Source: Psilocybe cubensis (lineage: Eukaryota). From it: a stretch of 64,000 nucleotides of DNA. A program made the translations under genes and the position numbers. Shown piece after piece: positions 770-29,209 of the stretch. Below the pieces are notes generated by a model, which was not told the origin of the DNA, made no database searches, and worked only from the letters and a program-made list of their open reading frames with translations. How positions within the stretch are numbered: the stretch's first letter is position 1; each line of letters starts with the position of its first letter. Where the stretch lies: the NCBI GenBank assembly GCA_017499595.2, contig CM039005.1, forward strand, positions 2,604,001 through 2,668,000, read 5' to 3'.

Positions 770-1050
770 TTTTAAATCGTCAAGTTGAGGTAGGGTGTGC
801 CTATGTACGTGAGGTTTGGGTCTTTCACTAATTACTCGAATTGAATGTATGGCTGACACACTTGCCGATGCGCAGTGAATGATCGCTGTTCATTTCCGAT
901 TGACATGCATTGCAGTGCACTGGAGTGTACCCATACGTGATCGATACCACTGTTCCAGTCCAAATAATCCAGTTTTATACTGACTCGAGGTTGAAATTTC
1001 ACTTTGAGGCAGTTTGACCGACATCACTTGTTCCTCGCGGCATGCGCATC
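770..1050 (-). promoter_or_regulatory. Conserved family upstream element, copy upstream of A
   Basis: Minus strand reads CCTCGAGTCAGTATAAAA...GCACTGCAAT...AACAGCG...ATTCAATTC...AACCTCACGTAC...GATTTAAAA. The same ordered motifs lie upstream of D, H and J. Confidence 0.7.
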
Positions 1051-3220
1051 ACGCATGCAACGTGGTGGCAGTGAGGTGGATATGCCAGTGCGTGTGAACC
1101 TTTCAAGTCGCCCAATCTCGTCCAATCCGCAACTTATCTAACTGAAAAACAGGGGTCAAATCCCAAACAGTGTAGAACTACCTGCCAGGATCTCGGAGCC
1201 TATCGTCTGTCACGGCCAATTATGATAATTAACCGGATGGCTTGCGTGAGCCAGAGTCAAGTCTTCTGAGCAGCAGCATTATATTATAGTATTCACAATC
1301 GTATGTTTTTCGGCGTATTGGGATGTTGTCTATCCCGACCTCGAACCAAGAATATGCTCGCTTAAATATATTCAGTATCCCAGACAGCATGCCTTTCTCA
1401 TATACCCATTTTTCCGTTCCTATTGCAGTTCCCATACACCGTTCCCTCCCATCTACATGCTCATCTAAGCTACAATCCCAATTCTTAAAATATTGACAAA
1501 CCCCTCAATATATATCTGCTGCGCCTCTCATTGCGTAATCCACAGCAATAAATCAGAGCGGAATCCCGCCCGGGGCTATTAAGCACTGTACGTCCCAGGG
1601 AGTCTTGCTTTGCAGTCTTCTTCCGTGCTGAACGTCCCTGTCGGATTCCATGAAATGCCCGTTTCACGCCCGAGGCCCGGGATATTGCAGAGTCAATATT
1701 TGACGGTTGCGTGGGAGGTGTATCTTCTGGAATTGTGATGGCATAAGTGAACTTTTCACAATATAAAGATGGGTCATTTACATGTGGACATCGTTTCTTC
1801 AGCGCTATTGGCAGTCACTTTGATGGGTGAACTGACGGTATCATAATTTGATACTTCGAGTTTGCCATGACTATCTGCGATGCTAGAAACAAGAACAACA
1901 TGCAGCATATCAGTCAACAGCGACGTTCATTAAAGAAGTTTTCAGACACGTACCTTGACCCACTACCGCTCTGAAGCGGCTCATCCCCCTGGTTTCTCTT
2001 CCTGGACACTCTGTCCTGGCTCTCGTTTGATTTCCTACTCACTCCATGAATCAGACATATATCCAACGAGAGGGAAAAAAGGCAAAAATTTCATACCTTT
2101 GATTTTGGGCTGGATCGCGCCCGTGCGCTCTGGCTGGGGGCAGTATTCCAGTTTCTGGAATCTCCTCCAAATCAAATGTAAAAATTTCAGTCCTAGATTC
2201 TCTCTCCTGGTGAGATAACATTGGCTGTGCTGTTGTGCTGTGGTTACTTCCTCTCTGAAACTGTGCCGCTGCTTGAGGCAGACCGATTGTGGCTTGCGAT
2301 GAAACCCGCCGCGTTTCGTCTGGACCAGACATTACTGTATGGGTGAGAGTGTGTGTTCGGTGAGGGAGATGAAAATATTCGGCACACTGGAGTGTATCTA
2401 TACGTGTCGATACCACTGTTCCAGTCCAAAAAATCCAGTTTTATACCGACTCGTGGACAAAATCTCACTTCGAATCAGTTTGACCGACATCATTCCTTCC
2501 TCGTCCCTCTTGCGGCATGCGCATCATCCACTGCGCAACGTGGTGGAAGTTAGGTGGATATGCGTGTGATGCTTTGTAGTCACGGTCCCCCAATGACAAT
2601 CTCGCCCAATCCGCAACTCATCTCTCTGAAAAACAGGGGTCGAATTCCAAACGGTGTAAACCTATCTGCTAGGTAAATCTCGGAGCCATTCGTATGTCAC
2701 GGCCAATCATGATAACTAACCGGATAGCTTGCATGAGCCAGAGTCCTGTATTCGCAATCGGATGTTTTTCGGCGTCTTGGGGTGTTCCTCTATCCCGACG
2801 TCGAACCAGGAAAATGCTCATTTAAATATACTCAGTATCCCAGACATCATGACTTTCTTAAAATACCTTTCGAATCATAATTCATTTACCCATCTTTCCG
2901 TTCCAAGTGTCGTTCCCGTACACCGTCCCTCCCACTCGCATCTACACGCTCATCGAAGCTACAATCCCGATTCCTACAATATTGACAAACCTCTCAAAAT
3001 ATATCCGCTACACCTCTCATTACATTCTCTACAGCGCCAAATCATATCGGAATCTCCGCGCGGGGAGCCTATACACCGTCCGTCCAATCTCGCTTTGATT
3101 TACAGGCTTCTTCCGGCCTTGCTGAACGTCTCCGTCTGACCCTATTGAACGACGGTTTCGCGCCGGTGGTGACCATTTCAAAGTCAATGTTGGACGGCGG
3201 TGTAGGCTGTGTATCTTCAA
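920..3220. repeat. Direct segmental duplication, ~920-1720 vs ~2384-3220
   Basis: Colinear similarity, e.g. cactggagtgta..., gataccactgttccagtccaaa, gtcacggccaat.atgataa.taaccggat, cagtatcccagaca.catg. Each unit is an upstream element plus the 3' end of the neighbouring paralogue. Confidence 0.85.
1774..2332 (-). CDS. Family member B, internally deleted mini-paralogue (~141 aa) or pseudogene
   Basis: ATG 2332; exons 2332-2097, 2034-1954, 1882-1774. Contains FTFDLEEIPETGILP and SRKRNQGDEPLQSGSGS, which match member D. A stranded, frameshifted terminal segment (SPGR/GFRSDL) lies at ~1545-1725. Confidence 0.55.
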
Positions 3221-9100: not shown

Positions 9101-11268
9101 TGCGCAATGCGCAGACACGGACCCGGACAGTACGGACTCATCTTCATAGAGCATGGGTACGTAGAGTTTTAAGGATTGTACTCGGAGTCAGCTACAGCTA
9201 GGGAAGCAACACTAGCAACAGAAGCTCACGTCGATTAGGATGGCGATGGCCATGTGAAGATGGATGCAGATGCAGATTCCAACAGGGAACCGGATGATGA
9301 TGCGGGCGGGTGCGGGTTCATATATGGATAAGCAGGTGATGTACTCCGCTGCTGCTTCTGTTTCTGCAGACGGGAGTGGCGGCAGTGGAGGAGGAGGAGG
9401 GTTGGGCACCGGCATAGGTGCGTCGTTGAAGCGGCCTTGGTGCGCTATCATTGTCTGAGGCAATACCCAAGTGCCACGCCACGCTTTCCGTTTATCCCTT
9501 TGATTGGACTGTGCTACTCATTCGCGCCTTTGTGTTGCTTTTGACTGTCGACACTCACCTCACGCCTTAAAGGAGAGGTTCGGTCAGGGCATGCTCCACT
9601 GTGAATCTCTCAAAATTGGTGGAGGCACTGCGATCTTTAGGTGTGTATACAGGTGAGTGTTTCTCTCCATTTACTTACCTCGGAAGCATCCTCATTCATC
9701 ATCACCGTCTGTTGCAGTTTCCTCCCTTCTCAGAAGTGCAATCTTTGCTATGTACCACCCTTGCACATACAGAATAACTCATATACATACAGGCACTGAC
9801 AATGGGCTTCGGTCTTACGGTTTGTGATGGATTTGAAAGAAGAAAGAAGGAACTGATCTTCGTTGTCCGTCATTGGTGCGTCAGTGGCACGGTCCTTCCC
9901 ATTAACTGCCATTGTGTCATCTTTAAATGTTCAGCTGTTCTCACAGTCTACACTCTCGATGCGATTTGTGGCGCACATGGGCGTTTCCAGACCTTGACTC
10001 CTTCGTGTTTGCTCACCTTTTTCTTTGTTCATATTTTCATCATCTCTCCCTTTACATTGTGAGATCCTTTTTCCTCCATTACCCCTACCCTACTTTCTAA
10101 CTGCAGAAAGAATGGCGCATGTAAATCATTTTTGCGCCTCCATCTCGAGATAACCTTGTGCTCGCTTTGTATTGGACGCAAACACGATTACATGTACAAG
10201 TTTGAGTAATTGAATGCACCAAATGCCGTTTGCATGCGCCATAGAGGTTTGTCTTCGGTTTTTATCCACTGTCTCCAATCCTTAGCCACCAGCTCTCCTC
10301 CGATGTGAGCCGCATGGACTGGGACCCCCTTCTTTTGCTAGGAAGATGCGTCAGGGTGTCTTCCCTCGTACTTTGCAACAACATGTGTAAATGATGATGA
10401 TATGCAATATCGATAGCAGCACCCTAAACCACCTTCAGCGCGTCTTTTTTCGGCGCATTCTCATTCTTCTTCGCTGACCACTCTGTCACTGTAACTTAGG
10501 ACTTTGGTTTCGTTATCTATGTATAGCGACGCGCTTTTTCCTTTGGTGCATTGTCTCCCCGCAGCCCCCGTCAGGAATGCCATGATTATAACCATACATA
10601 TATCTATTCAAATTGACCCCTTTTTTCAAAGAATTTTTGTATCACCCGTATGTGCATGTCCTCTTCTGTACCACATCAAGGCAGTAGTTCTTAAAGATCC
10701 GCCCTGGTTTGGTGAGATATAGAACTCGCCTTTGAAGGTATAGACAGATAAACTTGATATGTGTGTGCATATGTGTGTTCTTACCTAGAGGACAATTTCG
10801 CTGTCATTCCCCACCGTGTGTACGGATAACAGTCGATATCAAAATTAATATTGGATGCTTCGAACAGCTGACTTTTCTGAAGCTGTGGAGGTTAAAATAC
10901 ATGTACTTAATAGATTCAACGTGTCTAGTCGTATGGCATTTAAATTCTAATTTTCAAAGTGCTTCCCTTGAATATGCCACTTTTTGACTTCTCATCCATT
11001 TATCTGATTCTTTGCAGAAGCAGATGAAAGATCGCTGAAGACACTCTTGTTTCCTTAATTATCGCACCATGACCAATCACATCGTCGGTGGGAATCAGAT
11101 AAATATATTTGGATGGCATGTGCACGACCAGCATGCTCCTTGCACTCCTAACCTCTTCCCATTAATGCCTCTGCTTCCAAACACTTGGTCCACTGTCCTG
11201 CTATCTACTCAGTTGAGGAACAATGGATGAAATTTTGTATAAAAGTAGAAGCCTATGTGAGTACTTAT

Positions 11269-12570
11269 CTACTCTACTATTCTATGACAATGCACACATC
11301 TCACTGCCAGTGTCATCGATTCCTTTGACCAACATCCTCTTCCTGGGCACCTTCGGGCACCATAATATGTCTCAAAAGGCAACGGTTCGCCATCCGCTCC
11401 CAGCTGTAGGCAGACGCACACTATCTCCGGTTTCATCTGCTCCTCTTTCGCTTTCTTTGAGGCTTTTGGGGACCTAGAGGCGTCACACGCAACATATCAG
11501 CCATCAGCAGTTGATCACTAGTTCGCAAGCACGTACCTCGATCCACTGCCGCTTGGAAGCGGCTCGTCCCCCCGTTTTCTCTTCCTGGGCTTTCCTACAC
11601 TGCTTGATTGGCTATCCATTCCATGAATCAGACATTCATTCAATGTGAGGGGGAAAACCAAAATTCTTACCTTTGGGGGTATATTGTGTCATAGCCTTGT
11701 GATTCCATAGGGTGTATTCCCATTATTGGGACCACTTCTGGCTCAAATGTTAAGATATTTTGGTTTTTTTCACTCGCTGGTGCGGATAATGCTGCCTGGG
11801 ACATCATGTTATGACTGAGTCTCCTATGCGACGGTGGATTTCTTTGAGGCGCAGTGACTATGGGTGGCTGCTCAAACTGCATGTTATGATCAACGAAAGG
11901 AGATGGGTTTAAATGAGGGTGCGTGGTACCAAGACTTGTACCACCAGTATCGCTCCATTCACTCCTGCTGTTGTTGGTATGAAGCTGAAGAGCAGATTCC
12001 TCGATTATAGAACGAAAATTTCTGGACAGATTTTGACATGGAACATCGTAGGCGTCATTCCATCCCGCTGGATGCATGCCACGTTCCACCCAGTCAAACG
12101 AGCCGGGTAAACGAATATCATCCTGAAGGTGCATGGTACCCAAAGTTGTACTGTCACCATTGCTCCAGTCATTGCCACTGATTTCATGAGGAATAGAAGA
12201 CTCATCATTGGTAGGTCCTGACTGTAGATTCTGACTTGGAACATCATATGCTTGACTCAGCTCCCCCGGTTCCGTGTCGTTTCTCTCCGGGTAGAATGTA
12301 TCGCCAGCAAGAGGGAGCATAGAATCCAAAGGTAACGTCAATTCCTCATATGGAAGAATCGCATTATGAGGAAATACGGATTCAGAAAAATCTGAGGTGT
12401 TGGGTGGCTGTAGAGACGTCGTCAAACTTCCGGAGATCGTATCGTTAGGCGCTGTGGGAATGAAACATCAGATAAGCAAAGTTTGTGTTTACGAGCTGTA
12501 ATTGACCAATACCTTGCGAGTTGATTCCCAACAGGCCTAGGTTCTTAGATTGCGAGCAAGCCCTGTCCAT
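11269..12570 (-). CDS. Family member D (type 1): 372-aa disordered protein with NLS-like segment and C-terminal CxC...CxxCH module
   Basis: Exons 12570-12513, 12451-11671, 11611-11537, 11473-11269 splice in frame (1119 nt). Contains LTFEPEVVPIMGIHP, KPRKRKRGDEPLPSG and IVCVCLQLGADGEPLPFETYYGARRCPGRGCWSKESMTLAVRCVHCHRIVE*. Confidence 0.85.
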
Positions 12571-12647
12571 AATGTGCGAGTTTGCAAAGATAACGTTCTT
12601 TGTAGGAGATGGAGAAAATTGACGTGAAGAACATCACAGAATGCGTC

Positions 12648-12930
12648 ATTTAAATCTTTGAGATGGGTTCTGACGGCGCGTATGTACGTGAGGTTGTAGT
12701 CTTCCACTAATTACCTGAATTGACTGAGTGGTTGACACACTTGTTGGATGCGAAGTGATTTATTGAGGCTGTTATTCATTTCCCATGCAGTGCTGACGCA
12801 CCGGAGTAGTGTACCCATTCATGATCAATACCGCAGTTCCAGTCCAAAGAATCCTGTTTTATACAGACTCGAGGTCAAAATGTTATAACTTCGAGGCATT
12901 TTTGACAGACATCGTTTATTCATTGTACGG
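12648..12930 (-). promoter_or_regulatory. Conserved family upstream element, copy upstream of D
   Basis: Minus strand CCTCGAGTCTGTATAAAA...GCACTGCAT...AACAGC...CCACTCAGTCAATTC...AACCTCACGTAC...GATTTAAA; the proximal box is ~80 bp before the ATG. Confidence 0.7.
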
Positions 12931-13489
12931 CAAGGGCACAGGCATGTCGCGTGATGGCAGCGAGGTACATTCATGCGTGTGAACCTTGAGGCCTTGAGGT
13001 TGCGCAATTCGACGCAACACCGCCTCCCTCGATCTTTGACATGTCACCTAGCACCTGCCACTCCTAAAAGAGAAACTAAGTTACCAAAAAGGATGGCTTG
13101 TCTGTTGGGTAGCTTTCTTTATTCACTGTCGTTGATAACCCGTTCCATGAGGTTGATCTCATTGTGCAGAGTCAAAGGCTCTTTTCGACCATGATAGACT
13201 CATTTAAGTAGATAGCACAAGCCATTTACAATCTGTGCTTCAATGACATCATATAATTCAAAGAAGGTCTGATAAGATAAATATACATATTACATTTGAT
13301 GCATGATGGATTGATTATCTTAAAGTATGCTCGGATTCTATCCGAACCATCCCATCTCTTCCATCGATTTCATCGTCATATAACCCCTACTCCTTTGTAT
13401 ACGTTGCAGTTGCATTTAGGGAAGAACTGTTGAGACTCTTATTGCGGAAATCTAGATGAGTGGATCATTTATTAAATGGTAGGATGTGC

Positions 13490-15006
13490 TTACTTTCCCT
13501 TCGTTTTATCAGTTCGTTTCCCTTGGGACATTACCTCCCCGGTAACAAAGTCTAAGCGCGCCACTACAGCTCGAGGCCTACGTGGTGCACTAGCTGCGCC
13601 TGGCGTCCTTTGTGACTGTGCCTCCATTGTCAATTCGTTGTCGAATGTGTCCAATTCATGAGGCTGCGTAGCACTACCATCTCTGGCAGTACGCCCGCGT
13701 TTCTTTGCGCTTTCACTCGAAGAACCCATTTTTTTGGAGGAATTTCTTCCTCTTGATGCTCTTGGGGTGGCATCGTGACTGTCAATTAAGGTTATATCAG
13801 ATAGATCAGCACTCAATTCCAGTTCTTCAGAGACAAAGCGCCAGGATATACCTTCGAGCATCTTCTGGGCCAGACCTCCCTGAGGTTAATCGCTGATCAA
13901 CGGAATTGAATCCGGAGCCTTTTGCTTCATTAGATTCCGTGTGCTGGAATTCATCATTGACTGGGTATGCTTCTGTCTCTATAAATGGACGGAAACGAGT
14001 ACGAGGAGGATGTTTATCTTTTGGGGGCATGGCGTTGTGGTCCCGTTCTGCACTGCTTGAACTTCTGTTTACACTCTCGCTGGGCACATATTCCCTGGAG
14101 TGCCTTTTAAGACTTCCGTACGGGGTGTATCTCCCTAAATCCCGAACCTTTTCGCGCCGATGCGGAGGCACTTGTAAATGCGGGGTTTTGCCGGGCAGCG
14201 CCAGCAACGCAGGATTAATTGTTCCCGTTGCCACGTAGACTTCCAGTAGAGGGTCAGTCCATTTTTCTATCACTTGATTCAATGCTGGTAACTCTTTTGC
14301 GAGTTCAACATAATCACGCGGCAGAAGTGCAGAGGGCGTATCACTATGTTGGAATGAATCTTGAGGTGCTTGAGGGATAGGTTGGGATGGAAATGGTGTA
14401 TTGCCAAACATATCAAGCCGTAGATTATGAAATAAATCATCCCCGGAGTGACTATGCCCAGGTGTGTGTTCTGCAGGATGCAATGTTTTCCCGACGGAAT
14501 TCAAAACATCTTCACGGGCAACCGGAACAGTCCCATGACAAGTGGAACCATATAGGGATGATTGGGTAAACGTTGATGGTTTAATAGTATGAGAGAACGG
14601 CATGATTTGAGAGTTTAACGCATGAATTTGTAAGACCGCCTGTGCGCGAGTACCAGCGGATGGATTGGCATCGCTAGGGGTAACAAGAGGTAATTCTAGA
14701 TTGTCCAAGTAGGTCTCCTGGTAGCCATGGTCATCAACTTCGACTTCTGTGATTAGAATAATTAGCGTACGTAGGAGATGGATACTGGTCACGTATTAAG
14801 CTTACCATTCCAGCCACTGCTTTCAAAGAAGTCCTGTTTTGGGTTTTGCTGAACGTTCCTGCTGTCTTCGTAGACAGATTGTTCGGTACGATGGTATTGG
14901 GAAGCTTATGTACCGAAATCAACATCATGCCGTTCGAATAGGATACCTAAAGCTCACTATATTCGCTAGCGGTCGGGACAGACTGAGAAACGCCTGAGTT
15001 TGACAT
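13490..15006 (-). CDS. Family member E (type 2): multi-exon disordered protein ending RLDFVTGEVMSQGKRTD
   Basis: ATG 15006 (MSNSGVSQSVPTASEY), two short 5' exons, a long exon inside ORF 13827-14792 ending CTCGAAG|GT, and a last exon inside ORF 13490-13861. The C-terminus aligns with member I. A tiny extra 3' exon is possible. Confidence 0.75.
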
Positions 15007-15599
15007 TGAGTAGCAGAGAAGACGAGGGTGGTGAAATGCAAAAAGTGATGTTTGTTTCTAACAACTCGCTTTCTACTCGTCTGCCTTAAAAGTCCGGAGT
15101 CATTGCGTTGACACGCGTGGAAATTGTACCCTAGAACAACATTGACACCTGCGTGTATCCATGAGTCAAACATCGCGGATTCGTGTCACATTAATTCTCG
15201 ATCCACTCCAGGATATGTTTAGAGACAAACGACAGCGACAGATAGCCTCATTGTATGGAATATACATTCCGTCGAGCGACAAAAATAGAATGCCAACCTC
15301 ATGCAAGCCAGCTGGCGGAACCGGACCTGACCGACTTTGATCCCGTGTTCCACGCTTAATCCAGCAACGGATCCTATCACTACTCTAAACTAAAAGGCAT
15401 ACTACGGGCTGGCATGCGTAGGTGATTTAACAATGTGAATGTGCTGTCTCAAATAGAGTCTATTACACGCAATTTTCCTAGAGACTGAGTGCAGTGCAGG
15501 GAAAGGTATGATCGAGGTTTGGGAGGGGGTAATTTTAAAGCGCAGCACATAGGTTATGAAGTAGAGACGGTGTGTTGACATAATTTGGAGACGACAGAT

Positions 15600-15705
15600 A
15601 CCGCTGTTCCAATCCAAAAAATCTTGTTGTATACCGGCTTGAGGTAAAAAGGTTACAACTGCGAGGCATTTTGCAAAAACATTATTTATTCCTCGTGCGG
15701 CATGG
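15600..15705 (-). promoter_or_regulatory. Partial (distal) copy of the family upstream element, ~600 bp upstream of E
   Basis: ccgctgttccaatccaaaaaatc...tatac.g.ct.gagg...gaggcattttg..a.acat..tt.ttcctcg aligns with 945-1045, 2412-2520 and 12830-12925. Confidence 0.6.
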
Positions 15706-18254
15706 AGTCTTGAATTCACTAAAATAAACATACGTCCTAGAACGTCGTGCACTATGAAGTTCGAAAAGTACAGTTGAAAATGTCGAAAGATACAAAAGAT
15801 GCTGCTATAACAAATTAACATGCCCTGAATCGACATCCGGTTCGGCTTGACGGCATTAATCGTGTACACTTTGAAACTCCGCTGTTTGACGACGAAACGA
15901 GGCGTGAGGTGGGCTCAAACTTGACACGGTTCCTTGCTATTTCCCTATGCTTCCAGCCACATCAATTGTGCTACCCCCTTCAAAATTCACAGATATTCCA
16001 ATTCTCAACTCAAGGATAATACTGGATAATATTGGCTTTTGTAAGTAATCGTTTTTGGGATTTTTACAGTTTACTTGTCATTGTCAACAGCCATTCGACG
16101 ACAAAGTTGGAAGACGTGGTACTTTACGTGTCGCACACAGTTCCCATCTTCAACCGCACCACCACCACCACATAAACCCCAAACCACCCGCTCTACTGCG
16201 TCCTCCTCACATAATACACGTCCGACTTCATCCACGTTGTTCCTTTCAAAGGGTGCTTCCTCCAGGTCTTGCTCACCTTCAAGTACATATTAGGGTGGAT
16301 ATTGCGCATGGAGAGGATGTGGTACCGCTGACGAGGGAGTTGAAAGAGATTAACATAGTGGATATTGGTCGGGCTGCTGTTGGTGTGAATGGCGGAGGGT
16401 GCGGTGGAAGGGTTGTGGATGAGGATACAGCGAGGTCACACCTTCACCTCCAGCTGCGCCAGCTCTTTCCCAATCCATCAGTACCTCGGTCTCGACCCTC
16501 CATCACCACTCACACCCGGGGAGAGAGGGAGAGGGAAGAGAAGATGAAAGGCAAAGGATATCAGCCCAATGTCAAACTCAAACCACACCCTCACCCCCAC
16601 TCACCGCAGTGGTACGTACACCAAGAAATATAGGATCTCCCCGGCGCGGACGACTGCGTACACCACCACACTTTTTAGCGCCGATATGAGTTTCGCGGAT
16701 GTGTCGGGATGGGCCGCAGACGAGGTTGTTAGGCGAGGTGTTGGTGAGTTTGTGGTGGATTGTGATCTTGGTATGGATTCTGGTTTTGATATTTTTATTT
16801 CGGCAACACTTTTTCAGGGATTGGAGAGCTTGTGATGGGGATGAGGGTTTAACACCGCACGTTTCGGAGGGCGATGCAGAAAAGCCATGGTGTTGTAAAT
16901 GGTGGTAAACATCCACAGAATAACAACGCGAGAGAAAATTTCAAGGCAAAGGCGAGAGCGTAGCACCCGAGGACCATCACGCGCTGGCACAAGGTGCACT
17001 GTGGGATGCCTACACTGGACATGCAGCATACGGATGTCTAAAAGTACAGGTACAGACGGTCTTCCAGATCAGTTCACCATGCCTCGCGGGCGGGAGGGCG
17101 TATGCGCGTCTGTGTATTTCGCTATCATTGGACATTTGCTTATTCTCGGAGTCTTCACTCACGATGAGATGGCGCACACTGTCAACTTTGTGCATCTGGG
17201 ATCTGGATTCTTTCGTGTTTCCCCCTATTCTACATTCTCATATCCAACACATCACTTGCCTTACCTCTGTCAGCTAACTAGCGTCCTTCACCCCTTGATC
17301 CTACCTGACTTTTTAACTGCAGAAGAACGCCGCAGCATCCTTGTGGAACGCAATTACAGGCCCAAATATAATCACATATGTACACCTGTGAGTAGCCGGC
17401 TGGTATGTTGCATACGCCATCCAGTGCCTATAACAGCCGGCACCTGCTCTCTGATATGGGTCGAATGGGACCCGGACTCCCTTCTCCCTCCAGGAAGATG
17501 CGTTACGGTGCCTTCGCTCGCACTCTGTAACCGTGACTCGTGTGAACGACGGTGACATTGTTCCAATTGCCCACAACTGCACCTTTGCCTCTTTCTCATT
17601 CCCCCTCCACTGATCACTCTGTCTCTGTACCATTGATCTTGTGCACTCTCCCTCCATCTGTCTGTCATGTTTCGATTGCACCATACAGGCAGTTCTCAAA
17701 CTCCTCCCCCTTTCCTGACAATGCCCCATATTACTCGCACGGCTTGTTTTCTGCTATACCACATCAAGGCAGAAGTTCTCCACTCTCTTTCCATATATTG
17801 GGTTTGAAGTAGAACTCGCCTTTGTAGTCATAGACAGATAAACCTGGCGTGCGCGTTCATATGCGTGCCTACCTAGCGAACAATTTTGCTGTCATTTCCT
17901 GCTCTGTGGACGGTATAACAATTGATTCGAAGTTGATCTTCGACGCTTCGCAAAGATGGCTTTTCTCAAGCTGCAGACGTTTATGAGTGTACATACTAGA
18001 TTTCATTCAAAAAGTGGAATATCCTACATATTTACTAGAAGCAGTCGATTCAGAGGCGTCACGCTTCCGAGATACCAACACATTGGTGTACCAGGGGAGA
18101 CTGTCCTCGAAGAACATTTGTTCAGCATTTCGTGCTCATTCATGGCAAGAAATGTTTCCTGAGTCTTGTCTCTACTGGGTTCGATTCCGTTGCCCACCGC
18201 CAGCCTTCCTGTGCCAATTGATAATCCTGAAAATACTTTAAGCTCAGATCTAAT

Positions 18255-18388
18255 GGAGTTGTATCCACTTGAAAGCGGCTCGTCCCCTAGTTTCCTCTTC
18301 CTGGGATTCCTCACATGGCCCTTGCTTGATTGACTACTCATTCCATGAGTCAGACGTGTATCCAATGTGAGGGGAAAAACCAAATAAA
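18255..18388 (-). pseudogene. Family member F, remnant of the type-1 intron 2 and exon 3
   Basis: Encodes SQSSKGHVRNPRKRKLGDEPLSSG; the intron part (ttggttttcccc.tcacattg.at...gtctga.tcatggaatg..tag) nearly matches D 11537-11665. Confidence 0.75.
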
Positions 18389-20467
18389 CCGCAGAAGCAT
18401 TTCCCGAGACTGATGCACAAGTGATCTCACCCACTTTTACTCCTTCATTTCGGTGTCTTTGTCAATGTATTCGCACCCTTTAAAGGGACAGTAATGCGCA
18501 AAAATCCAGGCACAGGATAACCTTGCATGCGCCCTAGAAAGTGATTTAGTAAAGAAAAAGAATATGCATTATTCCCGAGCACCCTTGAGGTCACCCGTTG
18601 CAACACCCCTAAAAACGGAAAACTACTTCCATCAATTTTAGTTTCTTACAATCATTTTGCGGTACATCAGAGAGATTTCAAGGTAAGTAACAAACTTAAG
18701 TATCTCAAATTGCTTCCATGCAAATAAAAGATGACACAACGAATAGTACATCTCCAACTGAGACAGACTCGGTATTCGAATTTCCTTCGCACCCTTCAAA
18801 TCTGAATAAATTAATTACTGTCAGTAAGCCTGTATCAAGTGATTTGAGACGCAAAAAAGAGCCTACTCGTAGAAGGTACAAATGGAGCCTTCAAAGAGCA
18901 AAATACTCTGCACTAAGTCAATCCAAAACTCAGGTATATTGGTGCATAGCGCAGGGTTAATAACAGAAGGGATAAATGAGTTTCCCGTATAGTATGCGCC
19001 GTCAAAAAATTCAACCATAGACTTTATCCCCCCTTTAACGGGCTAGCATTAAGTATACGGATAGTTAGGATTGAAATGATATAAGGAATGCAAAGTCGTC
19101 ATACTTGAGTGTTGGGTGGTGCAGGGTTTCCTGAAATGACCGAGGGAGTTGATGCAGAGAGAAGACAAGTAAGGTAGGTACCAATCCTCAGCTTCATGTC
19201 TGTAATTGGTCGTGAAGCTTGCTTGTGGGGTACCAACTCGGGAAACTGATAATATGTAGACAAGGTTCGAGCACATCCTTTAAACCCAACCAGTATATAA
19301 GTCAATACAGAAACTGCACTCCAAGCTCCGGATTTCCCGAAGTCTAAGCGCTCATTCAATGACAATGATATGAATCGGTCGCTGTGTTCATGAGGTTTGA
19401 CAATCCATACATTCAAATTACATCAAGGGATCATAATTACACCATTTTGAGAGTATGGTTGGGCCTAAAAACAGCTCAATAGACAGCGTATCAATGAACG
19501 ACATTGGATTGTGCATAGGTCACATTGTGGTTTGAGTAGACTTGCCTTGAAAGCAGATGTATTTGTTGGCGTTTTACCATTTTTAACTTCAAGCCGAACT
19601 TGGCTGAGTTGTATGGGGTCTCCGAGATAAACTCCGATTGGCCCAGCAATTGGCTTGCATTGCTAGTCGCCAAAAGGTTCCCACGCTACCAGTAACCCAA
19701 AGGTGACGTGCAGGGTGCAGTGCATCACCAGAAAGCTTGCAGAGAGTGCCAAAAGCCTGATTCATTATTCCAGTGGGTTTTGGAGAACATTATTTTGATG
19801 TGTACAAGTAAGATTCATCTTCAAGATATGTTCTCCATTCAAGCCGTTGGTTAAGCATCTATTTCCAATTCAAAAACTCTCACGGTCCGCGCTATCAATC
19901 GATCTCAACAGCATTTACAAAATTTTGTATACTCTCAATCCGGCACTATGTTCATCGATTCTATCGACGCGTTGGTATCATTCAAAGACCTCTACCTTAC
20001 TCCATCTTAAATTTACAGACACCTGACTGGACCGATACACACCGATCAGAGGGAGACTTGGGATGGTCACTTTATGGCTGGGGAAGCACAGGTGCGAGTA
20101 ACAATTCACTTGGATTTCATGCCCGTCCAAACTTCGGTAGGAGTTCTATGTCTACATGCCTTGTAATTTCTATCCCACGTCGTGGATACTTGTCCGGTTT
20201 CGGTAGGATGTTTTTTGCCATCCTCCAGTCATTATGCCCCCCTGATCTCTATTCTTTCCTCCGCTGTTTGCCTCGTCATCGACCTCATCAACGGCTCCAA
20301 CAACCGTCAATGGGCCGCGTGCCCCTGGGTACTTTTACCTCCGCTGTAACCGTATAATTTCAGATAGATCTCAGGCGCATGCAAAGTGTTATGATGTACC
20401 TCGCATCTCGATCACGGCTGTGATCTGAATGCCTTTTCATGGTTTCTTCGGATCCGACTGGGCATTT

Positions 20468-21325
20468 TCAGAGTTCTGGGTACCTCTGTGAAGTTCCGAT
20501 GTTTCTATATTCCATCAGTTCCAAATCAACGAGAGCCGGAAAGACAAAACTTACCTTCGAACAGGTATCCGACGGCGCCCAACATGGGTGACCCGCTCGA
20601 CGGTACTATGCCCAGAGCTGTCATATTTGTGGCTGGGCCGTTTGAATCTAGTGTTTTGTGGTAACTCCGGCTCTCCAGTTGAAGCGCAGGAATATGGAGT
20701 ATAGAGTGGCAGATGGTGCGGCGCAACTGGCGCATACACATCCGAGTCGACAGCGCCGCTCTGGTAAGAATCCCTCTCAGACATACGCATCTCAGGCACT
20801 CGGCGTCTCCCTGATGTCTCATATGGCAAAGGACTTGTGTCGAGCGCCTCTCTGGGGATATTGGCAATTATTGCCGTGTTTTGAGTTGGGTGCGTCGCGG
20901 GAGTGCTCGCGACACCGTGAGTGGTTTGCAGTGAATAGCGACTTGGCTCGAATGGAGACGGCTCAACATACGGCGGAAATGATGCTTCCATTGTCGGATG
21001 CATCACCAGAGGTGACACTTGGTCAACATTTGAAGCAAGTAGAGACGTCGACGGGGGATGCTCGCATAGCGACTCTCCTGAATCTGGAAATTTGGTAGAC
21101 GAGAGTAGTGAATCCAGACCATCGGAGTCGAACACTGGGCCAGTAGACAGGATGTCTTCAGGGTTTCTATTGAGGTCAAAGTCGCTAATATAGAAGCCCA
21201 TAGAGGCCATAAAATCTGTAGCAGTGAGGGTCATATCTTGTGAAACATTATGAGTGGCGCATCACCGAAAGTTGGGAATAATACTCACCGTTGATTTGGC
21301 TGGATCCTGCTGTATATTTATCCAT
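20468..21325 (-). CDS. Family member G (probably type 2); 3' end truncated or degenerate
   Basis: ATG 21325 (MDKYTAGSSQIN), a phase-1 intron, then a long S/P/acidic exon (ORF 20551-21234) ending GTTCGAAG|GT exactly as in member I. The next exon meets TGA after ~12 codons and no GxRxD tail is readable. Confidence 0.55.
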
Positions 21326-22486
21326 TGTATTGTGCGAGGCAGAGATGCTAGATGTGCGGTAGTCCTCAACGGGGGAAATAGTTAAAAAGGGATACAAATG
21401 TGCTGAGTAGGATGGGTGCATTTTGCTAATCTTCGAATCAGGATAACAATACTAGTTGAACAGCGAACTCGTATACACAATCTTTAAATAACAAAATACA
21501 GTGTAACAGCATCCGACATGAGTAAAACCGGCCTTTGTTCTTCAAGGCAGGAGTGGCTCAGTCGTCCAGCCTAAACCCGATCTCAATGTCATATCATTTC
21601 CCAGGGTTCTCCCCTTTCTTTTTGGTGTCTTTTAGGTGTTTTGGGACACACTAAACACCGCCAGGCCGCGGTCTCGTGGTATGATTCCTCAAATTTGGGG
21701 GAAATTCCACATCCTTGGGCACAAGATGCATCATCCAAGTTCTCTACCCTGTAACTCCGACGGTGTGCACACAAACAGAAAGGGAACATGGGCATGTAGT
21801 CCTCTTGCAGCGTACTACATGCTGTGCAGTTACTGCACAGCGGGTAAGCGCCAATGTCTATCTTGCTGCCAAAGAGTTCGCAGTTTATGAAACTTACTAT
21901 CGACAATGAAGGAGACTTTAACCTCGTTGAGGGGGTAATTTTGCTGCGTTTTTTAATACCTTAGTGTATGATCCGAATGAATAAAAGTTCGAAGCACTGC
22001 CAGAACATCGTGTGGCTCGAGTGGCGAGGGAAAATCTTGATTAATCTACCCGAGTCTACAATCGACCATTGTCTGATAACATGATCAGCGTGTTAACAAA
22101 GCTTCATGGTTCTGATACCGGTGGCCATTATCGTGATAGTGAGTCTTAGTCAACAACTAGTTTTTCCAAGGCTTCGCGTTATTCCGGTAGATCTTAAAAT
22201 TCCTGAGACGTGCTGAAAGATTCAAGAATCACTCACGCTCCTTCGCAAAGACCTCGGGGTCGGCTCCACTGTCTATCACATCAGAAGGACAATTTCTTAG
22301 AAGATCCTCTGCAAAACTTTCTTGAGGCTGATGCTCCTCGACATTTCATCCAGAGTATGTTGGAAAGCTAATAATATATGATGACCTCACTTGCACCTTG
22401 AGGTTAGCCAGAAGGAGAGTTCAAGCTATGGCACTACTCCTGCCACGATCGAAAAACCATTAATCAAAAGCCTGGCTGCGAACTTG

Positions 22487-22715
22487 TGAATTAGAGTCAG
22501 TATAAAAAAGGAATCATTGAGCAAGAAGTGCAGTTATCGGATTCATGTACAGCAGTGGCTTGTTCACTTGCACTGCATTCCACTTTGAAGTAAACAGCGC
22601 CCAACGACAGCGTCTAATTTTGTGTCGGCCACTGAGTCAAGTAGAGTAGTTAGTTCAGGCCTTGTAACCTCACGTCCTCCACAACGTTGTAGTGAACGTC
22701 GACTATTTAAAGCCT
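22487..22715 (+). promoter_or_regulatory. Conserved family upstream element, copy upstream of H
   Basis: AGAGTCAGTATAAAA...GCACTGCATT...AACAGCG...CCACTGAGTCAA...AACCTCACGTCC...TATTTAAA. Confidence 0.7.
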
Positions 22716-22800
22716 TATTCCAATAGCTTCTCCTGCATATTTCTTCGTCTTATCACATCTATTACCTCTACTCTTCGTACAATTACACCCGCTAATAATC

Positions 22801-24199
22801 ATGGAAAGCCGTCCAGCATCTGTAAATGAAGGAGTATCTGGCATCAGCCCTACAGGTAGAGCGTCATTGAATCTCAAGTCAAAGAGTTTACTCACCCAAC
22901 GCAGCGCCGTCCACAGTTAACCCCGAATCTACAAGTCAAAGGAACGTCGCAACGCCACTAAGTCAACCTCTAGTCACGTCCGCTTCGTCAGACTTTATAT
23001 TTCCAGCAAACATGATTCTTCAGTATCCGTCAAGAACCGATCCCATTATACCTCTGGATTTATTTCCATCTCCACAAGAACCACTGTCCCTTTCAGATGA
23101 GGGGCTGACTCTGACCGGCAGATATGGCACTGGAAATTTCTTCTCTGGAACTGAAACTGGAGACGAACTGAACACGTTTGAGCCCAGTGTGGATGACAAT
23201 TCATTCGAGGATCTCCATTCCAAACCAAGATTTAGTGAATTTTCTATTGCAGGTTATGACGACAACGGATATGCCTCTCGTACCAATAACACTATGGATC
23301 CGGATAATGCATATTGTATTAGCTATGCGCCAAAGCCAATGGAAGCCAATGTGTCTCACCCACCGCAAACCCTATTATTTGGATCAAATTTTGCCGAGCC
23401 TATCGTTGATGACCATCGCAGCAACAGCTACACCTCTAGCATCGTGGGTGGTACAGGTCTGGAGCACACATCCCCTGTGTATCCGCCTTTCTCTCCTAGG
23501 TATTCGACCCGCAATATAGCAATTCTTGAATACAATTCAGAGTATGAGCAGCAGAAACACACTCTACTCCCCGTACACCTTGAAGGGACACATTCGCGTA
23601 GACGGCATGATCGTAGTCTGTCAGTCGATGGCATACATTACGAAGAAAGGGGGAAACCAATAACATTCAAGCCGGGAGAGATCCCAATAAACGGGATACT
23701 CCCTAATGTGACGCCGAGGTCTTCCCCAACGCACACTCGAAAGTATGTGATCATTGGTTAATACCCTCTTCTTCGTAGACATGGACTAATCAGATATGAA
23801 CAGGCCCATGAGAATGGATGCAGGTACAACGGCCAATGGAAGAACCAACAGGGGTGTGGCAAGAGGCTGTAATACGAGGTACGCGTCATCAACTGGTGCA
23901 GTGAAAATTTCAACATTGATATACAATATCTCGGGTGCTGCACCTCCAGGTCTACTAAATCCCAAAAGACGCCGGGAAAGAACCGCACGGCGTCCAAGGA
24001 GGTATGTGTGTGCCAGAAGCGCGGTGTCGATGGCAAACGCGAGCCGGTGAAGACATACACGGGGCCTACGAAGAGTCCGGGACAAGGTCATCGCTCTGAC
24101 CTGGCAAATAACTCAGCAAAGAAGTGTGAGCTGTGCCATAGAGAAGAGGTTCTTCTGGAAGAGAGATGGAGGAGCAACAGCACTTTTATTGGAGAGTAG
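22801..24199 (+). CDS. Family member H (type 1): 405-aa protein with C-terminal CxC...PGQGHRSDL...CxxCH module
   Basis: Exons 22801-22855, 22905-23742, 23804-23878, 23950-24199 splice in frame (1218 nt), with the same intron phases and the same 75-nt exon 3 as D. Contains SDFIFP..., ITFKPGEIPINGILP and EVCVCQKRGVDGKREPVKTYTGPTKSPGQGHRSDLANNSAKKCELCHR. Confidence 0.85.
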
Positions 24200-26167
24200 T
24201 CGGTGGAAAGGAGGGTTCTGTCCGAGAAGCACAATGGCCTTGCAGTATATATATATCATGAATACTTGATCATCCAATTTTCTCCGATGACGTGATTGAG
24301 AAGCAGGAGAAACTAGAACTTGATATAAAATACAATTCCAGTGAATCAACATGAATACATGTGCTCACCTGTCGGTAGAATTGTGTATGGGGTACGATTT
24401 GGGTACAATCCACAGCGCTGAGCATCGGTGCTGGTCGAGAACGGTCATTCAGCAGCCGTAGACGTCCGTGAGGATAGCGGAGTGTAAATTATTCCGAGCT
24501 CAGCCTGTCGTCGGATCATATCGGATTTCAGTTTCGCGATGCGTTGAGCTTTTATCCATATTTCCACCATCCGTTGCCCCGTCTTCGCGGGTCTAGTTCA
24601 AGTACACTTAATATTTCGGAGGTGGCTTTCTTCCAGGTAATTCTTAAAACACCTTTTACTCGTCGATACTCAATTTTGTCTCTAACAGAAAGGTAGCATG
24701 CGTATCTTTCACCACCTGTGACAAAGCTTGTGGAATGGAATGTGAGTCTACGACCGCGGTGAGTGCTATTCGCGTCGCATGTGTAACTTTCATGAACAAT
24801 TTATGAAGCCTGAAATTTCTTGGTTACACCTTCATTGACACTAATCTGCTTGGTGTTGAAGCAGTTGAGTCCCCTGTTTTTATTGTCACTTTCCTTTCAG
24901 CTGGCACTAGGTTCCCAGAAATTCTCAGACATGGAAATACGCTGGGTGGCCAACGCATTCACGTTTTTAAAGTTCCACTCTTTATCCCGCTCTACCCATC
25001 CTACTGAGCATATTCTGTCTGCAAGCGTAAGGGCCGAGGTCCGAACGCATTTCAACCATCCCTGATCACGAACTGCGCCGTATTCCCTCCCTGAGTTAAG
25101 CTGGGCATATGATTTGTTAGGCCTTTCTGACCATCTCCCAGGTCCACGCCCTGCGGAACTGAAGCCAATGCACTTAATGCCACTGAGAGTATCCATCCCT
25201 TGTTCCGCCCCACCGCCCTCGATGAGCTCGCTACACTGGGTTTCGAGTCGATACCCACTCAGCTATCCTCTATCTTTATTGCTACAGCATCTTTGAATGG
25301 CCAATGTTTCTCCTCACTTACACTGCTTGACATCGTACCCCTCGGCCTTGGTGTCTTCTGTAATCCCCTGTTTTCTTGGTAACTTCAAAACCTGGAAACC
25401 GTCTATCGCAACTAATGCTTTGCATACTTATACGGAAATGGGTTATGTTGTCTGTAATTTAAGTGGACCCACAGGCTCGGTTGTGTAGGCAGCGTGATAG
25501 TGTCTTTTTGTGCACTACCGCCAATACCTGTGAAACAGGAGAAACCGTTTGTATTGACACTTGACGTTTGAAACGAATACCCCATCTCTTAACATCAAGG
25601 TGCCCACGACGTTGATCTGTTTGAACTTTCTGACGTATCTTGAAGGAATGGTCAGTAGTAAGATTACAATTTGGCGTCTTGTGCACCGGTATCACGAGTG
25701 CATTGAATGTGGTTCTCGTTGCCCAAATTTCTCCTCAGCGGTCCGGTAGTATAGAGACCTACCGTATTACTTTACACCAAAGTTTGTAACGCCACTCCGC
25801 GGCTATGAAATGCATGAGAATGTGTGGTGAACTGCGGAAAACAAAGACATGAGGTGGCAACTTCACCGGAAGTCCATTTCCGGAGACCCATGAGGTCATT
25901 TTAATACTGTTCTGTTATATAGCAATCAAATATTTCCAAAAAATGCTTACAGAGCTGGAATGCGAGAGCGAGCGAGGTAAGGAGCTGTGTAAATTCGATC
26001 GACAGGTTTGTATTGCGTGGATTACTGGCTTGTATTCAGACATGAGACTTGCGCGTGTTAATATGTGTGGTCTGCCTTTATAACAGCGCTTGGACAGATC
26101 CAAATTTCTCCACATAAAACTTTCTTGTCTTCGTAAATCTCTCTAAGCTCTTCAAGAACTGTATCCC

Positions 26168-27466
26168 ATGTTTTCCATCACGTTTGATTTTGCCGATGCC
26201 GCTACACTGGCAGAAGTGACTTCAGCCCTTCAGCTAACATCGACGGGCCTTGAAGGTGAGCGCATCTACAATCTTTTAGGATACACGCTTATCGGGAGTC
26301 TGCAAAGGTTTCTCACTGGAAAACGGGGGCACAACGATTGATCCAAATATATGGTTCATCCCCGACAACCTTTTCCAACAGATGTTTGGCAGTACATTGC
26401 CATTGAATTGGCAAGAATACGTCCCGATCACACCCAATATACACGACCCTCCTCCTCCAGTTCCGCGCCCGTCTAACAGTCACGGAGAACAGCGTCTATC
26501 CGACTCTGAAGGGGCAAATAGTTCTTTCGCTGACATAGAAGCATACCGCGGTACATACCATGCTGAGCATGAGGGAGCTTCGGGCTCAAGCAGCGTCGTA
26601 TATCCTGATACAAAACACTTTGGATGCGACATTCCTGTAGGCCATTTTCCAACTGATCAGCAATTGGTATTCCCAGAAGTGCTGAATGGATCACTTAACC
26701 AACACATGGATATTTTCCACAATGACTATGGTGCGCATCAAATCTACCCAGAGCCACGGATGACCTCCACTGGAGATCCTACCATTCCGCCATTCCAAGA
26801 AGCATCGAACCAAACATTTCTTGGAGGGTATCCTAACCCACGAGTATCTGTACATCCATATTCTGGCGACACGGAAGAAGGAAAGACAGAAAGAAACGAT
26901 AACATATTCGACTACGCAGAACACCATAAACATTCAGCTTCCGGGATGAGTCCCGTTGAGCAGAATGATGGCACATCTGCCTCAACAGCAGTTCGAAGGT
27001 AATATGTTTGTTTCTATCTTTCATACCACTATGGCTGATGGAAGATATGGTAGTAACATGCAAAGGCCTCAAATTGGCATGTCGCCAAGTGGTGAAGGTG
27101 ATGCAGGCAGTCTATACCAGACGCAGACTGCGAGACATCCAAAGGGCAGCACAAGGTACGCAAGCATAGTCTTCAATCCTCAGAAGAGAATGACAGGTAT
27201 TCTGTTCAAGATTCCAAATCAGACTAGCCAGGGGGACGTTTGATGCGCACCATCTTCCCGCTCTAGATGCGGCTGCAAGAAACGGGGCGGTGTTTGAGAG
27301 GGATGATGGAGAATTGCAAAGTGTAGGAAGAAAGACGAGACTAATTGATGGACGGCGTCAACGTCAAGCTGCAAGAACGCGCTTAGACACAGTAACCGGA
27401 AAACCAATGAGTCAAGGTCTACGGCCTGACTGCGAGGGATATAAACCTAAAACTCGTAGAAAGTGA
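26168..27466 (+). CDS. Family member I (type 2): 4-exon protein ending RLDTVTGKPMSQGLRPD
   Basis: ATG 26168; exons 26168-26255, 26308-26998, ~27054-27155 and ~27211-27466 give an open frame. The C-terminus RQAARTRLDTVTGKPMSQGLRPDCEGYKPKTRRK aligns with E. The last acceptor is uncertain by a few codons. Confidence 0.75.
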
Positions 27467-27865
27467 GCACATATTCAAAGAAATTGACCAGCTAGACTCT
27501 ACTAACAAGTTATCCATGCACCTAGGCGTTCATAACTGTTTCATCATGGACTCCGACGCGCTTGTGAGATATATACGAGTGAGCTAGGAGGCTTGATAGG
27601 TTGACGAGACGACATCGATGGAAGGGAAAGAATCCGAATATAGTCCGAGATAATCAATCAATCACATGAACTATATAATCAATATGCTTATCTTATCGTA
27701 CCACAACATTGCCTCGAGGAAAATCTATTAAAGATTGTATTTAGTATAAAAAAAGACTGTTGATGAATAAAAACATGTTTTGGTGTGGACTGCCCTTTAA
27801 ATTTATGCACCCGGAATTTTGGCGGTTAGATGGATAATATATGAATCCCTCAAAGTGTCCTTCAA

Positions 27866-28086
27866 ACCTCGAGTCAGTATATAAATAGAGTCTTTGAGCA
27901 AGCAAGGTAGATTTTAGAATCATGTTCTACAGTGGCCTGCGCTCAAGCACTGCATTTCACTTTGAGGTGAACAGCGCTCACCGCTGCGCGTGGAAAATAT
28001 GCGACATCCACTGAATCAATTCACGTAACTGGTGTAGGACTCACGTCCTCCACAAGATGGTAGTCCAACTTTGACTATTGAAAGTC
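27866..28086 (+). promoter_or_regulatory. Conserved family upstream element, copy upstream of J
   Basis: CCTCGAGTCAGTATATAAA...GCACTGCATT...AACAGCG...CCACTGAATCAATTC...ACTCACGTCC...TATTGAAA (proximal box mutated). Confidence 0.7.
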
Positions 28087-28165
28087 TCGTTCAAATGGCT
28101 TTGCCCTTACAGTTGTTCGTCTCTCACCTAACTCTATCTGCGCATAATTGCACCACATAACAAAT

Positions 28166-29209
28166 ATGACCAGCCAGACACCCTTTGTGGTTGAAAGAGT
28201 AGCATGCATCGACGCTACAGGTGGGGAGTAATTACATCTTAAATCAGTGACATTACTCATCCAACGTGTTAATTGCTTCAGCACCTTCCGTCAACCAACA
28301 ATCAACAAGTCAAAGCAATAATGTCGGTTCCAATGGTTCAACATCACCAATTCAACTGTCTACCATTTCAGCTTCGTCCGACTTTATATTTCCAGCTAAG
28401 ATGACTATTCAATAACCACTCAGCAACAGCCCGAATATACCTTTGGGTTATTTTCACCTCTCCAAGAGTCACAGTCCCTTTCTGACACGGGTTTCGCTTT
28501 CTCAGGGCATTATGAGACCAGCCGTCCCCTCTACGGCGCTGGAGTCGGAGACGGACTGAACACGTTGGAACACATTGAGGATGACAACGCATCCGACACA
28601 TCAGATTATAAGCCAAAACAGACTATGCACCCTGTCCTCCGCGACGGTATACAAGGATCCGGAATGTATGATCCTGACCTGAAGCCCAATGCCACATATT
28701 TTGAAGAAAGACAACGCAAACAAAAAACATTCAAGCTGGGAGAAATTCCGATACACGGAAATTTCCTTAATGCGATGCTGGAGTATTCCCCAACCTATGC
28801 TTGAAGGCATGTAATATTTGGTTTTAGTCCTCTTTGTTTATAGGCATCAAGTAATTGAGAATCAATAGGCCCCTGCAATAGGAAGAATCCAATGAACAGA
28901 CGAAGAGTGACATGATCAAGGAGCTTGATTCAAGCGACGGTCATCCAAGGGATGAGTTCACACACATGTATCAAGGATGTCACTGACAGTCAATAATTAC
29001 CGCGGTGTGCCTCTAGATATCCCAAGGCATCAAAGAGGTACACAAAAGACACCACGTTATGCATTTGTCAACGACGCGGGGCGGATGGGAAGCGTGGACC
29101 AGTGGAGAGCTACACTGGGACGCCAAAAACTCCAGGAGGGGGTTATCGGTCTGACCTGGCAAACAACTCGGCCGTGAGATGTACCCTTTGCCATAGAGTA
29201 CTAGATTAA
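28166..29209 (+). pseudogene. Family member J (type 1), pseudogene closely related to H
   Basis: Same 55-nt exon 1 as H. TAA at 28413, a frameshift shortly after, TGA at 28802 (CGA in H) and damaged donors. The last exon still reads LCICQRRGADGKRGPVESYTGTPKTPGGGYRSDLANNSAVRCTLCHRVLD*. Confidence 0.85.

Follow-up and report, generated by a model that had tools for sequence, protein, structure and literature searches.

A conserved CxC-x37-CxxCH C-terminal tail in a small gene family of Psilocybe cubensis, with zinc as its candidate ligand

Introduction

Do three neighbouring genes of Psilocybe cubensis end in a zinc module of a new kind? The question is raised by a 64-kb stretch of DNA (assembly GCA_017499595.2, contig CM039005.1, positions 2,604,001 to 2,668,000), referred to below as the window, in which the predicted proteins of genes D, H and J close with the same cysteine-rich tail. 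An initial annotation, made from the letters alone, had described this tail as a candidate new zinc module with the pattern CxC-x38-CxxCH and an internal loop carrying GxDG, YxG and PGxG. The follow-up analysis reported here indicates that the tail is a real element under purifying selection as a protein in this frame. It matches no known family, which bears out part of the original proposal; a new class of finger is not demonstrated. The term "new zinc module" is a reasonable inference for what is a very narrow and young family.

The motif and its occurrence in the window

A six-frame regular-expression scan for C.C-x(30-45)-C..CH across the whole window returned exactly three matches, located at 11284-11418 on the minus strand and at 24005-24139 and 29060-29194 on the plus strand. 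These matches are held in stop-to-stop frames at 11272-11496 (D), 23873-24196 (H) and 28997-29206 (J). The region that spans them, 11269-29209, starts with the first base of the D stop codon, as counted on the plus strand, and ends with the last base of the J stop codon. As a chance control, the window was simulated 200 times with a first-order Markov model, which gave a mean of 0.02 matches per window; at least one match was found in three simulations and the maximum was two, compared with the three observed.

The last-exon peptides originally quoted for D, H and J are identical letter for letter to those recovered in the scan, and their gapless alignment holds over 46 residues. The spacer between the two cysteine knuckles counts 37 residues in all three copies and not 38. 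Seventeen positions of this alignment do not vary among the three genes (C, C, G, D, G, P, Y, G, P, G, G, S, A, C, C, H, R), and invariant columns number 22 across the whole last exon. The module is basic, with a ratio of Lys and Arg to Asp and Glu of 10/4, 8/3 and 6/4 in the three copies. In gene D, two additional cysteines lie on either side of PGRG. The Cys4-His pattern is kept in all four copies that possess the whole exon, namely D, H, J and a copy at another locus (public protein P0004, described below). Furthermore, D (CHRIVE), J (CHRVLD) and P0004 (CHRAVE) have the C-terminal ending CHR-x-[VL]-[ED]-stop in common.

Selection on the tail

The substitutions that separate the copies are concentrated at third codon positions. 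In the module, identity at codon positions 1, 2 and 3 is 0.81, 0.79 and 0.45 between H and J, 0.62, 0.60 and 0.40 between H and D, and 0.68, 0.64 and 0.40 between J and D. By the Nei-Gojobori method, the proportion of differences between H and J is 0.19 at nonsynonymous sites (pN) and 0.73 at synonymous sites (pS), which corresponds to a ratio of nonsynonymous to synonymous substitution (dN/dS) of 0.08. The same method gives a dN/dS of 0.19 for J and D, while synonymous sites are saturated between H and D. Of the six reading frames, all but the sense frame are interrupted by a stop in at least one copy, and amino acid identity is also highest in the sense frame. Third-position-biased substitutions together with a single common open frame therefore indicate a protein under selection. 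By contrast, no such asymmetry is seen between H and J in exon 2 (0.81, 0.73 and 0.69) or in the 300 nt upstream (0.72, 0.80 and 0.74).

Variation between strains agrees in direction. A contig of a divergent strain (X1) has no differences in 222 nt over the last exon of H, compared with 10 in 507, 6 in 110 and 5 in 163 in flanking pieces. On this sequence evidence, strong constraint in this small and tandemly duplicated P. cubensis family appears to be confined to the 46-residue tail.

Genes D, H and J

The coordinates of the modules, the gene models and the related features are collected in Table 1. As the initial annotation had it, the module stands in the last exon: canonical GT-AG models of D and H place it there, and the last exon of J is intact. 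D and H follow a common plan, with a short exon 1, a long exon 2 whose product is unfolded according to structure predictors, an exon 3 of 75 nt, and the module in exon 4. In D, exon 3 is rich in Lys and Arg codons and encodes KPRKRKRGDEP.

Table 1. Positions of the cysteine modules, gene models and related features in the window
Feature	Position	Strand	Details
Gene D module, CVC-x37-CVHCHR, 46 aa	11281..11418	-	Followed by IVE and a stop codon at 11269-11271
Gene D model, 372 aa, 4 exons	11269..12570	-	Exons 12570-12513, 12451-11671, 11611-11537, 11473-11269; three GT-AG introns of 61, 59 and 63 nt
Gene H module, CVC-x37-CELCHR	24005..24142	+	From the regular-expression scan; P0001 is the public model of gene H
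Gene H extended model, 405 aa, 4 exons	22801..24199	+	Exons 22801-22855, 22905-23742, 23804-23878, 23950-24199; GT-AG introns of 49, 61 and 71 nt
Gene J module, CIC-x37-CTLCHR	29060..29197	+	Followed by VLD and a stop codon at 29207-29209
Gene J	28166..29209	+	First exon intact; last exon 29017-29209 intact; broken upstream of the module
Spliced antisense transcript over gene H	22820..23924	-	Three introns, 22820-22895, 23300-23359 and 23867-23924, skipped in RNA-like contigs
Paralogue F, exon-3 homologue RNPRKRKLGDEPLSSG	18264..18329	-	Not followed by a donor; module exon missing downstream
Paralogue A, exon-3 homologue VSRKRNQGDEPLQSGSGS	1956..2021	-	No module found downstream

The public models of these genes differ in how well they capture the module. 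The product of gene H is identical in every residue to a public protein, P0001, which bears the name "hypothetical protein JR316_0009300 [Psilocybe cubensis]"; exons 2 to 4 of the extended model agree with it, and exon 1 was modelled on that of P0004. For gene D, the public model (P0005) uses an acceptor 19 nt downstream (window 11473-11611, minus strand), reads exons 3 and 4 in another frame and ends in ...GSGWRTVAF. It thereby misses the Cys module, and because of this frame the module of D remained unseen in the profile searches.

Gene H occurs in two alleles. In the divergent strain (an RNA-like run) and in one DNA run, 39 letters replace one base at 24146-24148, right after CHRE. By our reading, this allele would end CHR-E-V-E-stop, as D, P0004 and J do, and for this reason the 17-residue longer tail of the window allele looks like the product of a strain-specific deletion. 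Gene J is probably a pseudogene upstream of its module. Between its intact first and last exons it has three in-frame stops, one frameshift and two altered donors: TAA at 28413, a 1-nt deletion shortly after, TGA at 28802, a GC donor at 28807, TAG at 28879, and GG in place of a GT donor at 28950.

Relatives outside the window

A HMMER profile of the three tails was scored exhaustively against 1.84 billion cluster representatives. The scan returned P0001, i.e., H itself, a protein of 259 aa (P0002) and a 919-aa repeat protein (P0003), the last of which was rejected as spurious since it has no aligned stretch. Three more entries came from word-indexed profile searches among 5.8 billion proteins: P0004, with 391 aa; P0005, which belongs to gene D; and P0006, in which the locus of P0004 is modelled in truncated form. 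All relatives in the family are named Psilocybe cubensis, and three of them are situated on one 3.3-Mb contig. P0004 represents a fourth full copy, which keeps all four cysteines, His-Arg, GxDG, YxG and PGxG. P0002 is a fifth copy that keeps CVC...YTG...PGRGYRSDLA and then diverges; it has no CxxCH, and Trp takes the place of the first Gly of GxDG. A word search with the J exon alone gave 21 candidates, none of which scored; this counts as weak evidence, as P0001 itself was missed.

Other collections gave chance matches only. Six loci from a scan of prokaryote genomes and one from a metagenome scan match the profile at residues 11-29 or 2-29 only and were rejected as chance hits selected by the pattern. 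Two of these loci (L002 and L004) were translated; both read EVCICQKRGVD, and the roughly 50 residues after the match contain no further pair of cysteines. The scan of viral contigs gave 15 pattern matches, of which none was confirmed. Thus, no relative outside P. cubensis was found by HMMER, by word searches, in the ESM Atlas, or in prokaryote, viral and metagenome contigs; for other fungi, this means absence among the predicted proteins of the searched libraries. A full-text search of the literature, conducted on main texts, found no description of the motif.

Taken together, the family is apparently restricted to one species, tiny and turning over, with J broken, P0002 truncated and two further paralogues of the window, A and F, lacking the module exon.

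Comparison with known domains

At thresholds as loose as E<=1 or E<=10, Pfam returned no family for H, J, P0002, P0004 or P0005; the D exon gave one unrelated row below threshold and nothing finger-like. PDB sequence searches with one tail and with a five-row profile gave no match at E<=10. No described finger was therefore matched in Pfam or in the PDB sequence searches, and the statement that the spacing does not fit Zn2Cys6, GATA or C2H2 fingers is borne out by the absence of any finger family in Pfam for the six family sequences and by comparison with the Cys/His spacings characteristic of these fingers.

Hsp33 offers a precedent for zinc bound by a CxC and a CxxC. According to two reports, the two motifs form a Zn(Cys)4 site in its redox-switch domain, and upon oxidation of this site zinc is released and disulfides are formed (PMC7423844, PMC3184428). 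The sequence of E. coli Hsp33 (hslO) reads CTC-x30-CDYC. The tail, as CxC-x37-CxxC, resembles it in having CxC first and CxxC second, four cysteines and a C-terminal position. It differs in its spacer of 37 residues rather than 30, in the His right after the last Cys, and in that the proteins carrying it lack the N-terminal chaperone domain of Hsp33. In a profile comparison, hhalign aligned the family (A4) with E. coli Hsp33 at a probability of 0.2%, over five unrelated columns outside the zinc domain, and none of the six family sequences matched the Pfam family HSP33.

The SWIM zinc finger has the signature CxC-xn-CxH and is predicted to bind DNA or protein (PMC6130280). The tail shares with it the CxC first knuckle, a variable spacer and a short second knuckle with His. 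However, the second knuckle of the tail is CxxCH and not CxH, and the chain ends right after it; the tail does not carry the SWIM signature, and no SWIM match was returned by Pfam. THAP is a DNA-binding zinc finger of the C2CH type (PMC2879526). Likeness to the tail consists of two ligand pairs, a long and loop-rich spacer, and a large basic module. THAP domains are generally N-terminal and have the spacing C-x2-4-C-x35-53-C-x2-H. The tail instead opens with CxC and closes with CxxC(H), and no sequence is left for the THAP C-terminal box; the THAP signature is absent, and Pfam gave no THAP match.

Two further comparisons deserve mention. In a low-confidence model of the tail, two strands are paired, and a Cys knuckle stands at the start of either one, as would be expected of a classical zinc ribbon with its two CxxC knuckles on β-hairpins; yet the first knuckle is CxC, and the Gly- and Pro-rich spacer is of unusual length. 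The haem-attachment site of c-type cytochromes reads CXXCH, and the last five conserved Cys-to-His residues of the tail literally read C-x-x-C-H, which makes the tail no more than a lookalike. Unlike a cytochrome, the tail is placed at the extreme C-terminus of a protein predicted to be unfolded, with no recognisable haem-protein fold or import signal, and its paired invariant CxC is not known as part of c-type sites. The tail is best regarded, as far as its sequence allows, as a variant among small Cys4 modules, neither a new class nor an established new fold.

Structure predictions

AlphaFold2 reached a predicted local distance difference test (pLDDT) score of 41.6 with a three-row alignment (A1) and of 52.8 with a five-row alignment (A5). 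In the latter model, paired strands at 18-26 and 58-67 carry the two Cys pairs. This arrangement fits a ribbon-like zinc site, but the model is not reliable. The structure prediction that the initial annotation had suggested as a check gave two models of low confidence and no fold match.

Two ESM Atlas searches gave no usable match by features, and all structural neighbours had a template modelling (TM) score below 0.5. For the tail of P0004, 5 of 10 structural neighbour rows are clusters of A24_N_bact, DZR (twice), TFIIE_alpha and RINGv, at TM 0.32-0.41, which is under the bar of the tool and was obtained with a query pLDDT of 0.37. These are families which we take to be zinc-binding. The very low confidence of the Atlas models of the full proteins is consistent with family proteins of about 370-405 residues that are mostly disordered.

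Transcription of the locus

The H locus is transcribed. Two sequencing runs were taken as RNA by guess: their contigs behave like transcriptomes, although no run is recorded as RNA. Three pieces over gene H are skipped in these contigs (Table 1). DNA runs read through the second and third of them, and no listed DNA piece spans the first. On the minus strand, the first and third have GT..AG ends (GTGAGT...ACAG and GTATAT...ACAG), and the second reads GTGAGA...CCGG in the window allele. Skipped pieces with GT..AG ends on the minus strand are, for that reason, read as introns of a transcript antisense to H. This spliced RNA has no open reading frame (ORF) above 98 codons. None of the three sense introns of H is among the listed joints, a result that cannot exclude a rarer sense mRNA. 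Opposite paralogue F, one weak joint with 27 letters on its shorter side points to an antisense intron at about 20092-20140 on the plus strand. The RNA-like contigs do not cover D (11000-15911) or J (26350-29400) and are uninformative on expression there.

A zinc-held knob and its alternatives

The favoured reading, to which somewhat less than an even chance is given, is that the tail forms a lineage-restricted, basic Zn(Cys)4 knob of a ribbon- or knuckle-like kind at the C-terminus of disordered and probably nuclear proteins. In such a structure, CxC would open one β-strand and CxxC(H) the last one, and the two knuckles would be brought side by side, with the strands joined by the 37-residue Gly/Pro-rich loop and its GxDG, YxG and PGxG turns. 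The four cysteines would hold one Zn2+, as Cys4 or as Cys3His, and so produce a small basic knob at the extreme C-terminus. This knob is preceded by a Lys/Arg-rich stretch that resembles a nuclear import signal (KPRKRKR in D), and in the nucleus the two together may serve to bind either nucleic acid or a protein partner. Zinc, fold, nuclear location and binding are what we infer from these features.

Several observations weigh against this knob. The case for translation of the module comes from selection only, and splicing in the RNA-like contigs over H follows the opposite strand, with the sense intron 23743-23803 left in place. The two AlphaFold2 models have low confidence and are too weak to define a fold; the ESM Atlas models of P0001 and P0004 have pLDDT values of 0.35 and 0.37. 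Foldseek gave no match in the PDB at E<=0.001 (best E 3.3), and the highest Z of VIA-align against 48,161 chains was 2.6; neither result stands above noise, and no ribbon is among the folds listed. The module is known from one species only, and in J it stands behind a broken gene. It also seems dispensable within the family, being absent as an exon from A and F, and incomplete in P0002, which lacks CxxCH and has Gly replaced by Trp in GxDG.

Other explanations were weighed on the same evidence. The four cysteines may serve another chemistry, as a redox-active disulfide pair or in binding Cu(I) or an Fe-S cluster, which would turn the tail into a sensor or switch. CxC-rich tails are found in fungal copper proteins, and the two further cysteines around PGRG in D would suit such a role. 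Redox switches, too, typically contain CxC and CxxC, and in Hsp33 oxidation of such a site frees zinc and creates disulfides (PMC7423844, PMC3184428). However, only four cysteines are invariant, the relation to Hsp33 is undetectable by hhalign, and Pfam returned no thioredoxin-like or metallothionein family. As a basic module after an import-signal-like stretch also suits a nuclear binding knob better, a different chemistry is considered unlikely. It is equally improbable that the family is in decay or no longer yields protein, so that its output would be spliced antisense RNAs and the tail a relic of past selection. The defects of J, the missing module end of P0002 and the absence of the module from A and F would be expected of a relic, as would the antisense-spliced contigs over H (introns 22820-22895 and 23867-23924) with their retained sense intron, and the weak joint that suggests the same for F. 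Set against this, D and H have intact four-exon frames with canonical introns, dN/dS is about 0.1-0.2 with synonymous sites near saturation, and the module exon shows no differences between strains. The antisense RNA, for its part, lacks an ORF above 98 codons, antisense frames are not conserved, and the contigs cannot show the absence of a rarer sense mRNA.

That the tail is a copy of a described finger (SWIM, the Hsp33 zinc domain, THAP C2CH or the classical zinc ribbon), so short and so diverged as to escape sequence methods, is given only a small chance. The first knuckle is CxC as in Hsp33 and SWIM (PMC6130280). Weak Atlas neighbours of the P0004 tail, half of whose ten rows are clusters of presumably zinc-binding families and all of which fall under the bar of the tool, point the same way. 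The long spacer is THAP-like, if the spacing generally given for THAP is used. Pfam, on the other hand, returned nothing for five of six family sequences and nothing finger-like for the sixth, the PDB profile search was empty at E<=10, and the hhalign probability was 0.2%. Moreover, the second knuckle is CxxCH rather than CxH and the first is CxC rather than Cx2-4C; the chain ends three residues after His-Arg, which leaves no room for a treble-clef helix or a THAP C-terminal box. Smaller still is the chance that the tail is a constrained, metal-free C-terminal peptide, such as a docking, degradation or modification signal whose cysteines are modified or recognised directly. Its place at the extreme C-terminus would be in keeping with this, as would the ending CHR-x-[VL]-[ED]-stop of D, J, P0004 and, by reading, the other H allele, and the rest of each protein, which consists of short conserved islands amid poorly conserved sequence. 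Yet 46 residues with 17 invariant positions and many Gly/Pro turns resemble a folded unit more than a linear motif, and a Cys six residues from the end does not constitute a CaaX box.

A bolder version of the zinc-held knob would see in the tail a newly born metal-binding fold of one Psilocybe lineage, which serves as the DNA-binding head of young, rapidly duplicating and disordered nuclear regulators, with their loci overlain by spliced antisense RNAs. This version is regarded as a long shot, at rather below the standing of a redox or relic role and slightly above that of a disguised finger.

Paralogues, duplications and other features of the window

The initial annotation held that the proteins barely align outside the module. 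This is roughly so, except that two islands are common to all family members, an N-terminal SDF-x-FP...P-[IL]-P-[LV]-D and TF-x3-E-[IV]-P-[IV]-x-G-I-x-P, and that the DNA of H and J is alignable at 66-71% over 22494-23208 and 23628-23759. Further paralogues occupy the left 31 kb of the window: A at about 2 kb, F at 18-21 kb and, at the left edge, a copy that is cut. They carry the N-terminal and exon-3 islands without a module exon.

The same 31 kb form a patchwork of diverged segmental duplications, for example with blocks about 7.1 kb apart at 72-79% identity. This direct duplication, of 8819-10916 and 15937-18002, places D and F in successive repeat units, and further blocks of it are common to 799-3218. 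Upstream of H and J, about 300 nt (22494-22789 and 27871-28165) are some 75% identical. These are as conserved as the alignable part of exon 2 and more so than the third codon positions of the module exon (0.49), which may be due to gene conversion between the 5' halves or to a promoter element common to both genes. Immediately upstream of D and J, ORFs at 13493-13885 on the minus strand and 27194-27463 on the plus strand each have the orientation of their gene. They have a C-terminal LDxVTGxxMSQG stretch in common (11 of 16 residues identical, pairwise E 3e-4) and may belong to a second co-duplicated gene; the larger ORFs upstream of them do not align.

Further to the right, inverted paralogous ORFs at 30884-31384 (minus) and 32893-33291 (plus) are 50-72% identical over 46-78 aa. 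Another frame, which overlaps the copy on the minus strand, begins MKFTSISSLVLAAVSSALAVQA; this beginning resembles a signal peptide, and the pair may encode small secreted proteins. In the regions 46943-48066 (plus) and 51806-52743 (minus), ORF pieces within each region match one another at 40-90% identity, which suggests internally repetitive coding or low-complexity sequence. The right part of the window also contains an ABC transporter gene and a DUF4604 gene. The window as a whole is eukaryotic in character, with short GT-AG introns, and no tRNA or Rfam matches were found in it.

Significance

The public gene models of this family are unreliable, as one of them misses the module through a different acceptor and the only RNA-like evidence found is antisense. 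If no metal is bound, the tail would be one more lineage-specific conserved peptide. If, however, the tail binds zinc and folds, CxC-x37-CxxCH with its Gly/Pro turn-rich loop would be a new sequence solution among small Cys4 modules. The tail would then be a well-delimited, taxonomically restricted domain of which intact, truncated and pseudogenised copies are present side by side. Such copies would be useful for studying the origin and loss of small metal-stabilised domains and of orphan families. Should the tail even prove to be a newly born fold, P. cubensis would be a rare case in which the rise and decay of a zinc domain and of a transcription-factor family can be followed in one species.

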